Source: a virus | Taxonomy: Duplodnaviria > Heunggongvirae > Uroviricota > Caudoviricetes | Strand: one strand, 5' to 3' | IMG/VR virus record: IMGVR_UViG_2778261256_000009 | DNA: 12,617 nt | In this document: piece after piece, positions 2,591 through 10,778 of the stretch | Numbering within the stretch: the first letter of the stretch is position 1 | How the letters are laid out: every line of letters begins with the position of its first letter | Program-made: the position numbers and the translations under genes | The notes under the pieces: generated by a model | The model's database searches: none | The model's input: the letters and a program-made list of their open reading frames with translations, nothing else | Told to the model about the DNA's origin: nothing

Positions 2591-2675
2591 AGTCAGAGAT
2601 AACAATCAACTAATACTGTTTTGTTGATTTTTGCTTGTAATTGGCGTTCTGGTCTGAGTTTTGTGGAGTAAGTTG

Positions 2676-3053
2676 ATGCGTGATATTCAGATGGTTCTTG
2701 AGCGTTGGGGAGCGTGGGCGGCTAATAATCATGAAGATGTGACCTGGTCGTCCATTGCCGCCGGTTTTAAGGGATTAATTCCTTCAAAAGTAAAATCTCG
2801 CCCACAATGTTGTGACGATGACGCGATGATCATTTGCGGGTGCATGGCCCGTCTGAAAAAGAACAACAGCGATTTGCATGATTTATTGGTGGACTATTAT
2901 GTCGGCGGCATGACTTTTATGGCGCTTGCACGTAAGCATGGGCGATCTGATTGTTGGGTTGGCAGGATGCTTCAGAAAGCTGAGGGCGTAGTGGAGGGTA
3001 TGCTGATGGTGTTGGATCTCCGATTGGAGATGGATGCTGATTGTTCGAAATAA
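2676..3053 (+). CDS. Q: Late-gene antiterminator Q (QuuD/phage-82-type)
   Basis: [33 protein letters not shown]...[31 protein letters not shown] resembles E. coli prophage QuuD-type Q (recalled). ATG at 2676 follows GGAG; the track ORF starts at an upstream TTG (2661). Confidence 0.85.
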
Positions 3054-3065
3054 TTAAAGGAAAAG

Positions 3066-3094
3066 TTGCTGTCTGATTGTCATTAGTCTAACAT
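3066..3094 (+). promoter_or_regulatory. Candidate late promoter (PR'-like), which would also carry the qut site
   Basis: TTGCTG (3066-3071), a 17-nt spacer, then TAACAT (3089-3094), located just downstream of Q and about 60 nt upstream of a terminator. This is the lambdoid PR'-qut-tR' layout. Hexamers are weak matches to consensus; position-based inference. Confidence 0.25.
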
Positions 3095-3153
3095 TTTAAA
3101 TGTTGGAATCGCAACGTAGTTATTATCATATAACAGCTTGTTTCCTGATTTAG

Positions 3154-3180
3154 CCAGCCTCCCCAAAGGCTGGTCTTTTT
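3154..3180 (+). terminator. Rho-independent terminator (tR'-like, end of the short late leader transcript)
   Basis: Stem CCAGCC (3154-3159) / GGCTGG (3168-3173), loop TCCCCAAA, then TCTTTTT. It also lies 3' of the convergent blc-like gene, so it may work in both directions, weakly on the minus strand. Confidence 0.6.
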
Positions 3181-3208
3181 CTAATAAGTATTATTTCGGG
3201 TAGGGATT

Positions 3209-3733
3209 TTATTGTTTAACCCATAATAATTCATTGACATTGAATCCCAACTTTTGAGCGGTTCGCACATAGTCTGCTTTTACTTTATCTGGAATAGTTG
3301 GGGTCCTTGCCAGAATCCATAGGTATTCTCTGTTCGGACCACTGACAAGAGCATACTTATACTCATCATCCAGTTTGATTACATTATAGCCACCATAGAA
3401 GGGGCCAAAAAACGAAACCTTCAATGCTGCAGTTTTAGTATCTCCAGTAAAGTATGCTTTACCTTCGCTCTCGCTCCATTTATTTTTCGTTGGATCGTAT
3501 CCACGGTTAAGTACACGAATCCCTCCGTCGTTCCGTTTTCCATAAGTAGCGCTGACCTGTTCCAGACCACGTTCGAACCGGTTCTCGAGGCGAGCTATTT
3601 CATACCATTTTCCGAGGTAGCGGTTGGCGTCAAAATTTGTAATCGGCTGCACACCTTTAGGTGGTGTCGGGGCCTTACATGCTATAAGAGTGAAAGAGAG
3701 TGCAATGCCAGTCAACACAGGCCATAACTTCAT
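3209..3733 (-). CDS. blc: Outer-membrane lipocalin lipoprotein, Blc family
   Basis: MKLWPVLTGIALSFTLIAC has a signal peptide and LIAC lipobox. ...NFDANRYLGKWYEIARLENRFERGLE...KVSFFGPFYGGYNVI...YLWILARTP strongly resembles E. coli Blc (recalled). Confidence 0.9.
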   Translation of the reverse strand: MKLWPVLTGIALSFTLIACKAPTPPKGVQPITNFDANRYLGKWYEIARLENRFERGLEQVSATYGKRNDGGIRVLNRGYDPTKNKWSESEGKAYFTGDTKTAALKVSFFGPFYGGYNVIKLDDEYKYALVSGPNREYLWILARTPTIPDKVKADYVRTAQKLGFNVNELLWVKQ

Positions 3734-3925: not shown

Positions 3926-4885
3926 ATGATAAAAAAACCTGTGATTGGAATCAGCGGTTGTTTGGCCGGTTCTGCTGTTCGTTTTGATGGTGGTCACAAA
4001 AGAGCTGACTTTTTAATGGACAAATTAGTGGAATGGGTAACATTCAGACCAGTATGTCCGGAAATGGCTATAGGGCTGCCAGTTCCGCGTCCTGCTCTAC
4101 GTCTTGTGCGCTCGATGCAAGGAAATATACGGATGTGTTTCAGCCACGACCAGAATGAGGATGTGACAGAGAGAATGACAGAGTTTAGTCGTTCTTATAT
4201 GGACAAATTAAAGGATGTATCGGGGTTTGTGGTTTGTGCTAAATCTCCCAGCTGTGGCATGGAGCGCGTGCGTGTCTATGATGAAAATGGTAATCGAGGT
4301 CGTAAAGATGGAGTGGGACTATTTACGAGCACTTTGATGGAAAAGTTTTCCTGGCTACCGGTTGAAGAGGATGGGCGATTACATGATCCAGTGCTTCGTG
4401 AGAATTTTGTTGAAAGAGTTTTTGCTTTGCATGAGCTCAATCACCTTTACAAGGAGAAATTATCAAGAAGAGAGTTATTAGCTTTTCATAGTCGTTATAA
4501 GCTTCAGTTGTTGGCGCATAGTCAGGCAGGCTATAAAGATATGGGACCATTTGTGGCTGCAATACACGAGTGGGCGGACCTTGAATCATACTTTGAGGTG
4601 TATCGTGATAAGCTGATGGCGATTCTCAGAAAACCTGCATCACGTAAAAATCACACGAATGTGTTGATGCATATACAGGGGTATTTTAGTAACTACTTAA
4701 GTACACGCCAGCGTAAAGAGTTGAGCGAGGTTATACTTAACTATCGTTCTGGCACATTACCTCTTCTTGCGCCGTTGACTCTGCTGAAGCATTATCTGGG
4801 TGAGTATCCTAATGATTACTTGCTTACACAGAATTACTTCGATCCCTATCCGGACGAACTGGCTCTAAGACTGACGGTAAATTAA
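3926..4885 (+). CDS. DUF523 (TudS-like) + DUF1722 fusion protein, YbgA/RudS-like putative [4Fe-4S] thiouracil/4-thiouridine desulfidase
   Basis: N-terminal MIKKPVIGISGCLAGSAVRFDGGHK..RPVCPEM..VVCAKSPSCGME has Cys at approximately residues 12, 44, 104 and 110, consistent with the Cys ligands of TudS-family desulfidases. The C-terminal half resembles DUF1722 (YbgA-like). RBS AAGGGGGAG precedes the ATG. Family assignment is from memory. Confidence 0.7.
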   Translation: MIKKPVIGISGCLAGSAVRFDGGHKRADFLMDKLVEWVTFRPVCPEMAIGLPVPRPALRLVRSMQGNIRMCFSHDQNEDVTERMTEFSRSYMDKLKDVSGFVVCAKSPSCGMERVRVYDENGNRGRKDGVGLFTSTLMEKFSWLPVEEDGRLHDPVLRENFVERVFALHELNHLYKEKLSRRELLAFHSRYKLQLLAHSQAGYKDMGPFVAAIHEWADLESYFEVYRDKLMAILRKPASRKNHTNVLMHIQGYFSNYLSTRQRKELSEVILNYRSGTLPLLAPLTLLKHYLGEYPNDYLLTQNYFDPYPDELALRLTVN

Positions 4886-5227
4886 TTGTATGCGATATCA
4901 TCCAAAAGGATGAGTTCCTGCATGCAGGATATTTACAATCGTAAAAACTACACTATGATACCCAGAGTGTCAGTTTGTATAAAAACTCTGTTTACGCTGA
5001 AGAAACAATTGAGATGCAACTTAAAGTTGGTAAACATGCCAGTCAAAATATATAATATTATGATTCCACGCAGCTATATATAATATAACAGATTGGTTTA
5101 ATAATTTGTCTTTGTGAGTTAAATACATAATTTTATACTTGTGATGCAATGAAATTTTCCTTATTGTTGAACTGGCGAATATTGATTTTCCACCTATACT
5201 TACCTGGTGTAACCCCAATGATATCAG

Positions 5228-5968
5228 GTGGATAATATGCCATACATATGTTCTATCATTTTGGTGTTGAACTCGTTTGATGTCCGAATTGGTAAAGAAG
5301 ATATTTTGTTTAAAAAAGGAAGTGCTGTTCTCATTGATTACAATTTAAAAGATTTTTTTTCATCAAATATAGATCATGTAATGATCGTAGATGTTGAAGA
5401 GAAAACAGTTAATGATTTCTTTAAAAGCAACACACTCTCACCTTTTTCTGTAAGAAGGTTTTATCCGGCATACTTGATGGTGGAATGTGAAGATTTTTCA
5501 TTGTTAAAGAACTTGATTGCATGCTTGAATTGTGATGGCAGAACTGTGGATTTTGTTAGAAATCAAATATCACTTGCATGTCTTGCTATCTTATCTTCAG
5601 AGAAAATAGTGCAAAGTTTTTTATTTGGATGTCTTAATAGTTTAGGAAGTAAAGTTAAGGCTATTATTCACACGGATATATCTGCAGCATGGAGACTTTG
5701 TGATATATCTTCAAGACTGTATCTGAGTGAAAGTCTGTTAAAAAGAAAATTAAAGCACGAAGGCTTATCATTTAGTAAGTTAATTCTTGAAGAGCGAATG
5801 GTGATGGCGGAAAGGTTATTAAGCTACAATTTATATTCTGTTGGAAAAGTTGCTGAGATATGCGGTTATGAAAACACGTCATATTTTGTAAGTGTTTTCA
5901 GAAGGTATTTTGGTGTTCCTCCCCATCAATATTCATCAAGATTTTTTTTAGAAAAAGACATGATGTAA
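5228..5968 (+). CDS. AraC/XylS-family transcriptional regulator (C-terminal HTH), AT-rich
   Basis: The C-terminal region ...LYLSESLLKRKLKHEGLSFSKLILEERMVMAERLLSYNLYSVGKVAEICGYENTSYFVSVFRRYFGVPPHQY is a typical AraC-type double HTH. The gene and its 340-bp upstream region are markedly AT-rich. Start may be ATG 5228 or ATG 5237, which follows AGGTGG. Confidence 0.8.
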   Translation: MDNMPYICSIILVLNSFDVRIGKEDILFKKGSAVLIDYNLKDFFSSNIDHVMIVDVEEKTVNDFFKSNTLSPFSVRRFYPAYLMVECEDFSLLKNLIACLNCDGRTVDFVRNQISLACLAILSSEKIVQSFLFGCLNSLGSKVKAIIHTDISAAWRLCDISSRLYLSESLLKRKLKHEGLSFSKLILEERMVMAERLLSYNLYSVGKVAEICGYENTSYFVSVFRRYFGVPPHQYSSRFFLEKDMM

Positions 5969-6029: not shown

Positions 6030-6060
6030 ACGCCAGAATAATCGCGGCGTTTTTCTTTTT
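6030..6060 (+). terminator. Candidate intrinsic terminator downstream of the AraC-family gene
   Basis: Short stem ACGCC (6030-6034) / GGCGT (6046-6050) followed by TTTTTCTTTTT (6051-6060). The stem is weak, so confidence is modest. Confidence 0.35.
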
Positions 6061-6155: not shown

Positions 6156-6371
6156 ATGAAATCCATGGATAAGTTAACAACGGGTGTCGCCTATGGCACC
6201 TCAGCAGGTAGTGCCGGTTACTGGTTTTTACAGCTGCTCGATAAAGTCACGCCCTCACAGTGGGCAGCAATAGGTGTGCTGGGTAGCCTGGTATTTGGCC
6301 TGCTGACGTACCTGACAAACCTTTATTTCAAGATTAAAGAAGATAAGCGCAAGGCTGCGAGAGGTGAATAA
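6156..6371 (+). CDS. S: Class II holin / pinholin (phage 21 S-like), with dual-start motif
   Basis: 71 aa, [71 protein letters not shown]. Two Met codons (M1 and M4) fit the antiholin/holin dual start. Two hydrophobic segments; resembles S21/EssD (recalled). RBS GGAGGTGAGG. Confidence 0.9.
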
Positions 6372-6868
6372 TGCCTCCATCATTACGAAAAGCCGTTGCT
6401 GCTGCTATTGGTGGCGGAGCAATTGCTATAGCATCAGTGTTAATCACTGGCCCAAGTGGTAACGATGGTCTGGAAGGTGTCAGCTACATACCATACAAAG
6501 ATATCGTTGGCGTATGGACTGTATGTCACGGGCATACAGGAAAAGACATCATTCCCGGTAAAACGTATACCGAAGCAGAATGCAAAGCCCTCCTGAATAA
6601 AGACCTTGCCACGGTAGCCAGACAAATTAACCCGTACATCAAAGTCGATATACCGGAAACAACGCGCGGCGCTCTTTACTCGTTCGTCTATAACGTGGGC
6701 GCAGGCAATTTCAGAACATCTACTCTTCTTCGCAAAATAAACCAGGGCGATATCAAGGGCGCATGTGACCAGCTACGTCGCTGGGCATACGCTGGCGGTA
6801 AGCAATGGAAAGGCCTGATGACTCGTCGTGAGATTGAGCGTGAGGTCTGTTTGTGGGGGCAACAATGA
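6371..6868 (+). CDS. R: SAR endolysin (T4-lysozyme-like muramidase, R21-type)
   Basis: N-terminal Gly/Ala-rich weakly hydrophobic segment [20 protein letters not shown] (signal-anchor-release domain), then [25 protein letters not shown] carrying the E-x8-D-x5-T catalytic triad. Start overlaps the holin stop. Confidence 0.9.
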
Positions 6869-7329
6869 GCAGGGTAACCGCGATTATCTCCGCTCTGGTT
6901 ATCTGCATCGTCGTCTGCCTGTCATGGGGTGTTAATCATTACCGTGATAACGCCATCGCCTACAAAGAACAGCGCGACAAAAATGCCAGAGAACTGAAGC
7001 TGGCGAACGCGGCAATTACTGACATGCAGATGCGTCAGCGTGATGTTGCTGCGCTCGATGCAAAATACACGAAGGAGTTAGCTGATGCGAAAGCTGAAAA
7101 TGATGTTCTGCGTGATGATGTTGCCGCTGGTCGTCGTCGGTTGCACATCAAAGCAGTCTGTCAGTCAGTGCGTGAAGCCACCACCGCCTCCGGCGTGGAT
7201 AATGCAGCCTCCCCCCGACTGGCAGACACCGCTGAACGGGATTATTTCACCCTCCGGGAACGACTGGTAATGATGCAGGCCCAACTTGAAGGTGCTCAGC
7301 AATACATAACCGAGCAGTGTTTAAAGTAA
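6865..7329 (+). CDS. Rz: Rz i-spanin
   Basis: ATG at 6865 overlaps the endolysin stop (ATGA). N-terminal TM segment [21 protein letters not shown] followed by a charged, coiled-coil-like periplasmic domain. Resembles lambda Rz. Confidence 0.85.
7085..7270 (+). CDS. Rz1: Rz1 o-spanin lipoprotein, embedded in the +1 frame of Rz
   Basis: [53 protein letters not shown] has a lipobox (VVGC) and a proline-rich mature region. Lies wholly inside Rz in another frame, the classic spanin arrangement. Confidence 0.8.
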
Positions 7330-7466
7330 AATCTTAACTACAATATGATTCATTTTGATGATTGTTTCATAAGGAACAGTGAAGTAAGATCTAAGAGGAG
7401 TTAAATTTTATACAGTATAATCATAATATTGCAGCAAGGTGGTTATAATTGAAAGAATATTTAGAT

Positions 7467-8924
7467 ATGAATACATCTCATGTAAGAGTTGTTACTCATA
7501 TGTGTGGGTTCCTGGTTTGGCTCTATAGTCTTTCAATGTTGCCACCAATGGTTGTAGCATTGTTTTATAAAGAAAAAAGCCTGTTCGTTTTCTTTATAAC
7601 TTTCGTTATATTTTTTTGCATTGGTGGCGGAGCGTGGTATACAACTAAGAAATCTGGCATTCAATTACGTACCCGTGATGGGTTTATTATAATTGTAATG
7701 TTTTGGATTTTGTTTTCTGTTATTAGTGCATTCCCTTTATGGATTGACTCAGAACTTAATTTAACGTTCATTGATGCTCTGTTTGAAGGGGTTTCTGGAA
7801 TAACAACAACAGGAGCAACTGTAATTGATGATGTTAGTTCATTACCTCGGGCATATTTGTACTATCGGTCACAGTTAAATTTTATAGGTGGTTTAGGAGT
7901 TATTGTTCTGGCGGTTGCTGTATTGCCATTATTGGGTATTGGTGGTGCAAAGCTTTATCAGTCAGAAATGCCGGGGCCATTTAAGGATGACAAACTCACT
8001 CCCCGCCTGGCCGATACGTCACGGACACTGTGGATAACTTATTCTTTATTAGGTATTGCTTGTATTGTCTGTTATAGACTTGCAGGAATGCCTTTGTTTG
8101 ATGCTATTTGTCACGGGATTTCCACAGTTTCGCTTGGTGGTTTCTCAACTCATAGCGAGAGTATCGGATATTTTAATAACTATTTGGTTGAGCTGGTGGC
8201 TGGTTCTTTTTCCCTGCTATCGGCTTTCAACTTCACTCTTTGGTATATTGTTATTAGCAGGAAAACGATAAAACCTTTAATCAGAGATATTGAACTTCGT
8301 TTCTTTCTGTTAATAGCCTTAGGGGTGATCATTGTTACCTCTTTCCAGGTCTGGCATATAGGTATGTATGACTTGCATGGAAGTTTTATTCATTCGTTTT
8401 TTCTTGCCAGCTCCATGCTCACTGATAATGGTTTAGCTACGCAGGATTATGCAAGTTGGCCCACGCACACGATAGTGTTTTTGCTGTTGTCAAGTTTCTT
8501 TGGGGGATGTATAGGTTCAACTTGTGGTGGAATTAAGTCACTTCGATTTCTTATACTTTTCAAACAAAGCAAACACGAGATAAATCAGCTTTCTCATCCC
8601 AGAGCGTTGTTGAGTGTAAATGTAGGAGGGAAGATAGTTACAGATCGTGTAATGAGGTCTGTATGGAGTTTCTTTTTTCTTTATACTCTCTTCACGGTGT
8701 TTTTTATACTGGTGTTAAATGGTATGGGATATGATTTTCTTACATCATTTGCAACAGTGGCTGCATGTATTAATAATATGGGATTAGGTTTTGGGGCTAC
8801 TGCATCGTCATTCGGAGTGCTTAATGACATTGCAAAATGTTTAATGTGCATAGCTATGATTCTTGGTCGCCTTGAAATTTATCCTGTTATTATATTGTTT
8901 TCAGGTTTTTTTTGGCGCTCCTAA
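7467..8924 (+). CDS. trkG: TrkH/TrkG-family potassium uptake transporter (Rac-prophage TrkG-like)
   Basis: 485-aa polytopic membrane protein from ATG 7467, MNTSHVRVVTHMCGFLVWLYSL..., with several glycine-containing selectivity-filter-like P-loops (e.g. GVSGITTTGATV, GISTVSLGGFS, ACINNMGLGFG). AT-rich. Matches E. coli K-12 TrkG as recalled. The track ORF starts at an upstream TTG (7449). Confidence 0.9.
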   Translation: MNTSHVRVVTHMCGFLVWLYSLSMLPPMVVALFYKEKSLFVFFITFVIFFCIGGGAWYTTKKSGIQLRTRDGFIIIVMFWILFSVISAFPLWIDSELNLTFIDALFEGVSGITTTGATVIDDVSSLPRAYLYYRSQLNFIGGLGVIVLAVAVLPLLGIGGAKLYQSEMPGPFKDDKLTPRLADTSRTLWITYSLLGIACIVCYRLAGMPLFDAICHGISTVSLGGFSTHSESIGYFNNYLVELVAGSFSLLSAFNFTLWYIVISRKTIKPLIRDIELRFFLLIALGVIIVTSFQVWHIGMYDLHGSFIHSFFLASSMLTDNGLATQDYASWPTHTIVFLLLSSFFGGCIGSTCGGIKSLRFLILFKQSKHEINQLSHPRALLSVNVGGKIVTDRVMRSVWSFFFLYTLFTVFFILVLNGMGYDFLTSFATVAACINNMGLGFGATASSFGVLNDIAKCLMCIAMILGRLEIYPVIILFSGFFWRS

Positions 8925-9061: not shown

Positions 9062-9853
9062 ATGAGCGAGAAATTAAAGATAGTCTATCGCCCATTACAA
9101 GAATTGTCACCGTATGCGCACAACGCCAGGACGCACAGCCCTGAGCAGGTGGCACAACTGGTAGAAAGTATTAAGCAATTCGGCTGGACTAATCCGGTGC
9201 TGATTGACGAAAAGGGCGAAATTATTGCGGGTCACGGTCGTGTTATGGCGGCTGAAATGCTCAAAATGGATTCTGTTCCGGTCATTGTTCTGTCTGGCCT
9301 GACGGATGAGCAGAAAAAGGCGTACCGCCTGGCAGATAATCGCCTGCCGATGAATGCTGGCTGGGATGAAGATCTGTTGCGGATGGAGCTGTCGGACCTA
9401 ATCAATGCTGATTTTGATGTCTCCCTGACAGGCTTCATCCCGACAGAAATTGATGAACTGTTGACGGATGTTTTGCCCGGTACAGGAAATGAGGAGGAGC
9501 CGTATACGACGAAAATTGATACGCCTGTTTATGAGCCGTCGGGCGGTAAACCGGATATCAGTGAACTGTACGACGATACGAAAACTCAGGAGCTGATCAG
9601 CCGGATACGTTCGGCGTCCCTTGAGCCTGATATTGAGAAATTCCTCCTGTGTGCGGCAGAACGTCACACGGTGTTTAATTTCAGCAGAATTGCGGACTAT
9701 TACGCTCACGCCCCCTCTGAAATTCAGTGTTTTTTCGAGGAGTCGGCGCTGGTGATCATTGATTATCAGCAGGCTATTGAAAATGGATTTGTCCGGATGA
9801 CGCAGCGCATGGTGGAGATCATGCATGGTGGTGAGGAGGAGGAATATGCGTGA
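9062..9853 (+). CDS. ParB N-terminal-domain (ParB/Srx-like nuclease domain) protein, YnaK-like
   Basis: The N-terminus LKIVYRPLQELSPYAHNARTHSPEQVAQLVESIKQFGWTNPVLIDEKGEIIAGHGRVMAAEML shows the ParB-N fold signature, including a GxxR box. C-terminus is acidic. Occupies the position after trkG that ynaK holds in Rac (recalled). Confidence 0.75.
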   Translation: MSEKLKIVYRPLQELSPYAHNARTHSPEQVAQLVESIKQFGWTNPVLIDEKGEIIAGHGRVMAAEMLKMDSVPVIVLSGLTDEQKKAYRLADNRLPMNAGWDEDLLRMELSDLINADFDVSLTGFIPTEIDELLTDVLPGTGNEEEPYTTKIDTPVYEPSGGKPDISELYDDTKTQELISRIRSASLEPDIEKFLLCAAERHTVFNFSRIADYYAHAPSEIQCFFEESALVIIDYQQAIENGFVRMTQRMVEIMHGGEEEEYA

Positions 9854-10778
9854 TGATTTTTGCGCCTTTATTCTGACTCACGGGCGACCGGACAAAGTTC
9901 TGACTTACCGGACGTTGCGTCGTGCTGGCTATACCGGGAAAATTTTTATCGTTGTTGATGATGAAGATAAGACACGGAATCAGTACATGGCTGAATTTGG
10001 TGAACAGGTGCTGGTGTTTTCCAAAGCCGATATCGCCAGTCGTTTTGACGAAGCCGATAATTTCTGTGACCGCCGCTCAATTTTTTACGCCCGTAATGCC
10101 TGTTTCGACCTGGCAAAACTGGTCGGGTGTAAATACTTCATTCAGCTCGATGATGATTATCACGAGTTCCAGTTTCGGGTGGATCGCAACTATGACCAGG
10201 CCTATTTTCCGATAAGGAAACTGGATGCGATCCTTTCTGAAATGCTGGCGTACTACGAATCAATACCTGCTCTTTCCATCGCTATGTCGCAGGGCGGGGA
10301 TTTTCTTGGTGACAATGGCGGCCATGCTTCGTGGGTGAAACGCAAGGCAATGAACAGCTTTATCTGTTCGGTTGATCGACCGTTCTCATTCATGGGGCGC
10401 ATTAACGAGGATGTGAATACGTACACGAATCTCGGTCGCTGTGGTGAATTGTTTATGACGATCGGTGCTGTCCAGTTAGGGCAGAAACAGACGCAGAAAA
10501 ACAGCGGCGGAATGACCGAGCTGTATCTGGATTCCGGAACCTACGTTAAAAGTTTTTACTCCGTCATGTATGCGCCGTCGTGCGTAAAAATCTCACTGAT
10601 GGGTGCCAGCCATAAACGCATTCACCATCAGGTCACCTGGAACAACGCTGCAGTAAAAATCCTTCACGAAAAATACAGGAAGAAGACACCCTGCATATCA
10701 ATGGGGGTGACAAATGATTCCGTATTCGAAAGTCGAGTCTCTGGCAGCGTGCCGGATGACTGCACAACAAATCGCTGA
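9846..10778 (+). CDS. Uncharacterised protein with a GT-A-fold-like motif pattern (possible nucleotide-sugar transferase); function unknown
   Basis: ATG at 9846 follows a strong GAGGAGGAGG RBS and overlaps the ParB-like stop by 8 nt. The pattern FILTHGRPDKV .. IFIVVDDEDK .. YFIQLDDDYH resembles the beta1 / DD / DxD layout of GT-A glycosyltransferases. This is a motif-level inference only. Confidence 0.55.
   Translation: MRDDFCAFILTHGRPDKVLTYRTLRRAGYTGKIFIVVDDEDKTRNQYMAEFGEQVLVFSKADIASRFDEADNFCDRRSIFYARNACFDLAKLVGCKYFIQLDDDYHEFQFRVDRNYDQAYFPIRKLDAILSEMLAYYESIPALSIAMSQGGDFLGDNGGHASWVKRKAMNSFICSVDRPFSFMGRINEDVNTYTNLGRCGELFMTIGAVQLGQKQTQKNSGGMTELYLDSGTYVKSFYSVMYAPSCVKISLMGASHKRIHHQVTWNNAAVKILHEKYRKKTPCISMGVTNDSVFESRVSGSVPDDCTTNR

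Follow-up and report, generated by a model that had tools for sequence, protein, structure and literature searches.

The window, the whole 12,617-nt stretch of DNA analyzed here (IMG/VR virus record IMGVR_UViG_2778261256_000009; Caudoviricetes), corresponds to the region of late regulation and lysis in a lambdoid Escherichia coli prophage. At positions 5237-5968 on its + strand lies a gene for an AraC/XylS-family regulator of 243 amino acids (aa) (RefSeq protein id: WP_001146308.1), an assignment drawn from Pfam, NCBIfam, RefSeq, BLASTP, alignment and AlphaFold. The gene is located ~2.2 kb downstream of the gene for the Q antiterminator (2661-3053, + strand), which is QuuD/Q82-like (PF06530; Pfam Phage_antitermQ, 173 bits) and has 90% DNA identity to K-12 quuD; a blc-like and a ybgA-like cargo gene lie between the two. 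On the other side, 187 bp separate the end of the regulator gene from the holin gene essD (6156), the first gene of a lysis cassette (6156-7329, + strand) in which lysozyme and Rz with an embedded Rz1 come next (Pfam Phage_holin_2_1, Phage_lysozyme and Phage_lysis). The position directly upstream of the lysis cassette, given in a first-pass annotation of this DNA, is thereby borne out.

The open reading frame (ORF) of the regulator (5228-5968) matched two Pfam profiles at residues 161-237, HTH_18 (54.9 bits; cut-off, 33.6) and HTH_AraC (44.1 bits; cut-off, 26.6), and with both scores above the cut-offs the earlier assignment to the AraC family stands. The protein consists of a beta-rich N-terminal domain (residues 1-135) and a DNA-binding domain with two helix-turn-helix motifs (residues 136-235). 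Within the ORF, the ATG at 5237, which is the start annotated by RefSeq, is a better start codon than the GTG at 5228, because the latter falls within the Shine-Dalgarno sequence AGGTGG (5226-5231, + strand). This Shine-Dalgarno sequence was read from the sequence 5 nt before the ATG and is kept in homologues, as is the start-region motif CAGGTGGATnATATG based on sequence comparison.

The gene and the DNA upstream of it are AT-rich. The G+C content (GC) of positions 4886-5968 is 31.9%, with 31.9% in the 351-bp intergenic region (4886-5236, + strand) and 31.8% in the coding sequence (5237-5968), versus 43.3% in the ybgA-like gene, 50.3% in the lysis cassette and 44.7% in the window as a whole. 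The intergenic region was characterized by composition and by alignment with a second allele of the locus, found in phage Lambda_2G7a (82.7% aa identity over 243 aa by BLASTP; hereafter, the 82% allele). With all non-overlapping 1083-bp stretches of the window taken as background, mean GC was 46.0% (sd 4.0, minimum 36.1); the window's lowest-GC 1083-bp stretch starts at 4929 (31.1%). The first-pass annotation had described the gene and its upstream region as far more AT-rich than the neighbouring phage genes, and these values agree with it.

The regulator gene is intact and under purifying selection, and it is not the truncated or inactive pseudogene for which the first-pass annotation had allowed. 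Its product is full length (243 aa, compared with 237-253 aa in homologues), and all of the invariant DNA-binding residues of a 12-sequence family alignment are present in it. Compared with the 82% allele, the ratio of nonsynonymous to synonymous substitution rates (dN/dS) is 0.26 for the whole gene, with 0.15 for the DNA-binding and 0.32 for the N-terminal domain. AlphaFold2, run with a 23-sequence alignment, predicted the structure with confidence (mean predicted local distance difference test score, 88.9; predicted template modelling score, 0.84), and the model has an N-terminal domain rich in beta structure, helical linkers and a DNA-binding domain with the canonical seven helices. The DNA-binding domain of the model superposes on that of GadX (3mkl) with a root mean square deviation of 1.1 Å and template modelling (TM) scores of 0.89-0.92. 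Based on Foldseek, the best structural matches to the full-length model are the AraC-family virulence regulators Rns, CsvR and ToxT, which have a fatty-acid-binding N-terminal domain (E from 3e-11 to 2e-7). The alignments to these three proteins span 245-262 columns, nearly the whole model; however, the resemblance is at the level of the fold only, with ~18-20% identity and TM-scores of 0.40-0.44, as the domain orientation differs.

Relatives, genomic slot and distribution

BLASTP aligned the regulator to Sakai ECs_0287, presumed to be PatE (53.6% identity over 235 aa, ungapped), to PsrA (ECs_1087; 39% over 235 aa), to GadW (34% over 234 aa), to AppY (32% over 233 aa) and to YdeO (32% over 237 aa), and to GadX over the DNA-binding domain only (40.6%). 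The closest characterized relatives are therefore the ones for which the first-pass annotation had recommended a search. The alignments to PatE, PsrA, GadW, AppY and YdeO are ungapped or near-ungapped and colinear over 233-237 residues, and the regulator has the N-terminal motif MxxxCSV(I), of which M1, C5 and S6 do not vary across the 12 aligned sequences. Among NCBIfam models, YdeO (NF007407) scored highest, with residues 4-239 aligned to model positions 1-234 of 253 at 127.3 bits. Based on profile searches, the clade of the regulator is found almost exclusively in Escherichia. Sequence comparison places the regulator in the Escherichia group of GadW, YdeO, AppY, PatE and Psr, as a separate sub-lineage that is nearest to PatE by sequence and PsrA-like by phage position.

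PatE (Z0321, in prophage CP-933H/Sp1 of enterohemorrhagic E. coli [EHEC] O157:H7; ECs_0287 in Sakai) is the closest characterized relative, and ECs_0287 is the sole AraC gene of prophage Sp1. Like the window gene, it is AT-rich prophage cargo (35% GC) with a TATACT -10 element equally far from the ATG; however, it sits between the tail-fibre genes and the integrase, whereas the window gene sits between Q and the holin. The two proteins are 72% identical in the DNA-binding domain and 40% identical in the N-terminal domain, and recognition helix 1 reads SESLLKRKLKHE in the regulator and SESLLKRKLKEE in PatE, with one residue differing. The regulator is not a PatE orthologue, given the level of identity, the different genomic position and the placement of the two proteins in separate 90%-identity clusters. 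PatE activates gadE, gadBC and hdeAB, and it lowers transcripts from the locus of enterocyte effacement (PMC10877973).

PsrA and PsrB, the prophage-encoded secretion regulators of EHEC, share with the window gene the family, the protein architecture and the slot that follows Q and precedes the lysis genes. The name psrA is given to ECs_1087 in PMC13502914, and the EDL933 PsrA protein used for comparison is 100% identical to the ECs_1087 ORF. The regulator differs from PsrA in that only 56% of the DNA-binding domain and 27% of the N-terminal domain are identical, and with ~90% identity to ECs_1087 or Z2104 as the yardstick of orthology, its 39% to ECs_1087 sets it apart from PsrA/PsrB. The Psr genes accompany a CAAX protease, tRNAs, nanS-p and either pch or stx, whereas the window gene accompanies blc and ybgA. 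PsrA and PsrB activate gadE and yhiF, so they repress type III secretion. Among the K-12 relatives, appY is likewise prophage cargo (DLP12; 31.7% GC), and its product is homologous to the regulator end to end, but it is found at the tail-fibre end of DLP12 and not beside Q. YdeO and GadW also show end-to-end homology, including the N-terminal MxxxCSV motif, and with AppY counted in, identities are 32-34%. AppY, YdeO, GadW and GadX converge on gadE and glutamate-dependent acid resistance (PMC10057817).

The genomic slot is shared with more distant relatives. Two homologues, with 64% and 56% identity to the regulator, adjoin Q genes of two other Pfam families (PF03589 and PF06323) in loci that lack blc and ybgA; the holin comes directly after the 56% homologue, and the contig with the 64% homologue stops at the gene. 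Since both homologues follow an unrelated Q and both lack the blc and ybgA neighbours, it is the regulator gene alone that recurs after Q. PsrA-type genes occupy the Q-to-lysis interval beside tRNAs and, in one phage, stx2, and genes of the PatE type lie at the tail-fibre/integrase end of their prophages.

The regulator gene together with its upstream region is present in 1081 of the 5426 complete E. coli genomes (~20%), and nearly all copies in these genomes are chromosomal. The best match per genome has ≥99% identity in 592 genomes, 95-99% in 2, 90-95% in 264 and 80-90% in 223. The identical protein is found on at least 1000 contigs. Among the isolates listed, carriers came from humans, poultry, pigs, cattle, dogs, a cat, river water, hospital wastewater, sediment, deer and a housefly; because they span many sources and not one pathotype, type III secretion is probably not what the regulator targets in general. 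The gene is also carried by isolated temperate phages, with a 99% form in IdasGreatGrand and the 82.7% form in the lambda-like phages Lambda_ev, 2G7a and 1H12, and the gene order Q, blc, ybgA, regulator, holin is common to both forms. Its occurrence in lambdoid prophages and in isolated temperate phages confirms that it is phage-borne, as had been proposed, and the decayed prophage remnant AR_0085 still carries it intact. In databases, the protein is named “helix-turn-helix domain-containing protein” or “AraC family regulator,” and PHROGs lists it under phrog_1450 with “unknown function.”

Candidate transcription signals around the regulator gene

A proximal promoter candidate (5172-5200, + strand), with a -35 element CTGGCG at 5172-5177 and a -10 element TATACT at 5195-5200 within CTATACTTA, was identified by conservation of position within the family. 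In the window type, the PatE type and the 64% and 56% homologues, the distance from the -10 TATACT to the ATG is 33-37 nt; the PsrA type has TATAAT in the same place. At 17-18 nt upstream of the -10, the 56% homologue and the PatE type have TTGGCA as the -35, and the 64% homologue has TTGGTA. The sequence CTATACTTA, in which a C precedes the -10, fits the extended -10 preferred by sigma-S. According to a review, expression of both patE and rpoS is higher in stationary phase (PMC10877973).

The first-pass annotation had described a 340-bp AT-rich leader. The AT-richness of this region stands; however, because the conserved -10 is ~36 nt before the ATG, the 5' untranslated region is predicted to be ~30 nt long, and most of the supposed leader is probably untranscribed DNA upstream of the promoter. 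In the comparison with the 82% allele, two blocks of the upstream region are conserved, TTTACA-16-TATGAT (4932-4959) and TTTCCACCTATACTTAC (5186-5202), and conservation across the Q-to-Rz region as a whole is lowest at positions 5000-5190 (44-57% identity between the 99% and 82% alleles, with indels). An Rfam scan of the whole window returned no match, so no known RNA element lies upstream of the regulator.

The first of the two conserved blocks is a distal sigma-70-like site (4932-4959, + strand), which matched 10/12 positions in a promoter scan. It is kept in the 82% allele and is not present in the homologues that lack the blc/ybgA cassette; it lies ~280 nt before the start codon, and neither a terminator nor a conserved ORF was found downstream of it. 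Its -35 falls within an imperfect inverted repeat, TTTACAATCGTAAA, which by eye is possibly EvgA-box-like and was given no weight. Another promoter-like site (5027-5056, 10/12) was dropped since it is deleted in the 82% allele, and two 65-codon ORFs (4886-5083, + strand; 5021-5218, - strand) were dropped as genes since indels break both of them in that allele.

Downstream of the regulator gene, alignment identified a hairpin with a T-run that resembles an intrinsic terminator (6030-6060, + strand) and whose 3' arm is 1 nt shorter in the window through a deletion. The counterpart in IdasGreatGrand and Lambda_2G7a has a clean 7-bp stem (-11.3 kcal/mol, z = -2.5), and the gene for the 56% homologue is followed by a comparable CCAGCA/TGCTGG hairpin with a T-run. 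A hairpin weakened in this way could let transcription from the regulator promoter run into the holin gene to a greater extent in the window strain.

Directly after Q, as in lambdoid phages, a pR'-like late promoter candidate, TTGCTG-17-TAACAT, was read from the sequence at 3066-3094 (+ strand), and a terminator scan identified a tR'-like intrinsic terminator with an 8-bp GC-rich stem and a T-run at 3153-3184 (+ strand; fold, -14.2 kcal/mol, z = -3.1). Because the regulator gene sits between Q, with its pR'/tR'-like unit, and the lysis cassette, late Q-dependent read-through into the regulator, which the first-pass annotation had proposed, is anatomically plausible. The candidate unit at 3066-3184 would itself yield a short terminated leader RNA, comparable to the 6S RNA of lambda or the small RNA StxS of Shiga toxin (Stx) phages.

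In some strains, an insertion sequence (IS), IS1 or IS5, has entered between the regulator gene and essD: in ET82 (locus L012, 2897-3594), in EC05 (locus L013, 2900-3880) and also in EC20. The insertion in EC05 changes the 3' end of the regulator ORF, whereas the regulator is unchanged in ET82. These insertions cut the lysis genes off from pR'.

Predicted role of the regulator and its alternatives

The reading that we favour, and that we consider probable though by no means assured, is that the gene forms an autonomous cargo unit (moron) and encodes a PatE-like protein that activates the acid-fitness island of the host. With respect to the unit, the gene is set off from its flanks by GC (31.8% versus 43-50%), and it is present or absent between otherwise homologous phages, the Q-to-essD interval of K-12 DLP12 holding nmpC. 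Candidate signals of its own are the conserved -10 TATACT and the hairpin with its T-run, but the -35 is weak, and the terminator has the 1-nt deletion. With respect to the targets, homology points to host genes, as all characterized members of the clade (GadW/X, YdeO, AppY, PatE and PsrA/B) act on gadE and/or hdeA. The acid-fitness island is suggested further because the DNA-reading helices are highly conserved and because the gene is kept under selection in decayed prophages such as AR_0085 and after IS1 or IS5 has separated it from the lysis genes. PatE, PsrA/B and AppY are described as acting on gadE, hdeA and glutamate-dependent acid resistance (PMC10877973, PMC8565820, PMC10057817, PMC13502914).

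In a lysogen, the gene would be transcribed at a low level from the proximal promoter (-10 TATACT, 5195-5200), probably in dependence on stationary phase or stress, and the transcript would end at the hairpin at 6030-6060. The regulator would bind AT-rich operators through its two helix-turn-helix motifs, in a DNA-binding domain 72% identical to that of PatE, and it would activate host promoters in the acid-fitness island (gadE, hdeAB and the glutamate-dependent acid-resistance genes downstream) like PatE, PsrA/B and AppY. The inducing signal may differ from that of PatE, the N-terminal domain being only 40% identical. Upon prophage induction, Q-modified RNA polymerase from pR' would pass tR', the cargo genes and the regulator's own terminator, and the regulator would then be on the late transcript as well, comparable to stx in Stx phages.

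Several findings weigh against this interpretation. The regulator is not an orthologue of any characterized regulator, with 40% as its N-terminal identity to PatE; its 127.3 bits are far below the YdeO equivalog cut-off of 348 bits, so it is not a YdeO equivalog, and its score is also below the NCBIfam equivalog cut-off for GadX. ECs_0287 has been equated with PatE/Z0321 of CP-933H by position in Sp1/CP-933H only. Recognition helix 2 differs from that of PatE at 4 of 14 positions, and because of this the targets of the regulator could differ from those of PatE. Literature searches by protein accession, phage name and cassette found no study of the regulator and no functional name for it. As for the signals, the proximal promoter has a poor -35 in the window allele (CTGGCG; the 82% allele has ATGGCA), promoter-like sites in the scan overall were not enriched over shuffled sequences (15 versus 13.5 expected), and the hairpin at 6030-6060 folds in the window with -8.1 kcal/mol and z = -0.36, as a weakened terminator.

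A more far-reaching version of the favoured reading, which we put forward tentatively and hold to be possible at best, is that the gene represents a third, widespread lineage of the PatE/Psr type, carried by about 1 in 5 E. coli and recurring in the Q-to-holin slot with at least three unrelated Q families. Such a gene would be under dual control, by its own sigma-S-like promoter and by pR' read-through, and its diverged N-terminal domain could sense a signal different from that of PatE or PsrA; it could connect phage carriage to a stress regulon of the host (acid resistance or another) in commensals and pathogens alike.

Among the alternatives, an unlikely but not negligible one is that a functional gene stays unexpressed in lysogens, for example under full repression by H-NS, and is expressed only as a passenger on the late transcript during lytic growth, with little consequence for the host. 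A GC of 32% across 1.1 kb is typical of H-NS-bound DNA, and from this AT-richness alone H-NS silencing of 4886-5968 is plausible; the -35 is weak in the window allele, the gene lies within the pR'-to-lysis transcription unit, and H-NS is reported to be among the regulators on which appY expression depends (PMC10057817). However, the high-affinity H-NS motif TCGATAAATT is not enriched in the window (18 matches versus 18.3 expected), and it has no match in 4886-5968, the nearest being at 4874-4883. Purifying selection on the gene also argues against a silent passenger, as do its intactness in decayed remnants such as AR_0085 and its retention where IS elements split it from the lysis genes, and a terminator of its own with a family-conserved -10 favours independent expression.

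Somewhat less likely still, in our view, is that the regulator controls neighbouring cargo or phage genes (blc, ybgA, trkG or the lysis cassette) and not the host chromosome. Regulators of the AraC family frequently act on adjacent genes. Both blc and ybgA accompany the gene in the 99% and the 82% alleles, and trkG follows the lysis genes in the window and in locus L015. This local control is opposed by the 64% and 56% homologues, which come directly after Q with neither cargo gene, in the latter case with the holin next. Moreover, no neighbour is kept across the family, in which the PatE type is found in the tail-fibre/integrase region and PsrA by tRNAs and stx, and all characterized members regulate host genes. 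A reading of the gene as a pseudogene in decay, or as an ORF that AT-rich DNA contains by chance, for which one could cite shorter database entries (195 aa and 133 aa) and the IS insertions nearby in some strains, is ruled out for practical purposes by the family alignment (full length, all invariant residues), the dN/dS of 0.26 and the confident AlphaFold model, along with the many contigs that carry an identical protein.

AraC-like regulators of prophages (AppY, PatE and PsrA/B) are the best-documented case of phages rewiring acid resistance in E. coli and, in EHEC, type III secretion. The regulator described here is an unstudied and unnamed relative of these proteins that is much more widely distributed and is found in inducible phages as well. 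If it does drive gadE and hdeAB, phages would determine part of the differences between strains in acid tolerance and gut passage, and that part would be transferable. Such a role would not surprise a specialist; the prediction is nevertheless specific, and the prevalence of the gene gives it practical weight for strain differences in acid tolerance.

Neighbouring genes in the window

Upstream of Q, the window encodes NinB, Dam, NinX and RusA (385-2453, + strand). The first cargo gene after Q encodes a Blc-like outer-membrane lipocalin (3209-3733, - strand; NCBIfam Blc, 316 bits, cut-off 267; Pfam Lipocalin_2) and is antisense to late transcription. The second (3926-4885, + strand) encodes a YbgA-family protein in which a TudS-like part (DUF523) is fused to DUF1722 (Pfam 2-thiour_desulf and DUF1722); the TudS-like part is of the 2-thiouracil desulfurase type. 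Compared with the cassette of the 82% allele, dN/dS is 0.07 for the blc-like gene and 0.10 for the TudS/DUF1722 gene, which indicates strong purifying selection. PHROGs assigns “unknown function” to both genes, and a PADLOC scan for defence systems returned no match for the regulator or the other cargo genes.

Downstream of Rz, a gene for a TrkG-like potassium transporter of the TrkG/TrkH family (7449-8924, + strand; 37.8% GC) is AT-rich cargo between Rz and ynaK, as in the Rac prophage of K-12. With the regulator gene on one side and trkG on the other, AT-rich cargo therefore flanks the lysis cassette on both sides. A gene for a ParB-like YnaK protein with a ParB_N domain (9062-9853, + strand) overlaps a gene for a TET-associated glycosyltransferase (9825-10778, + strand; PF20691, 121 bits), just upstream of the terminase subunits (10969 onward, + strand). 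No TET/JBP dioxygenase was found within the window. The ParB_N and PF20691 genes (9062-10778) may form a DNA-modification pair, and the same pair is also present in locus L015.

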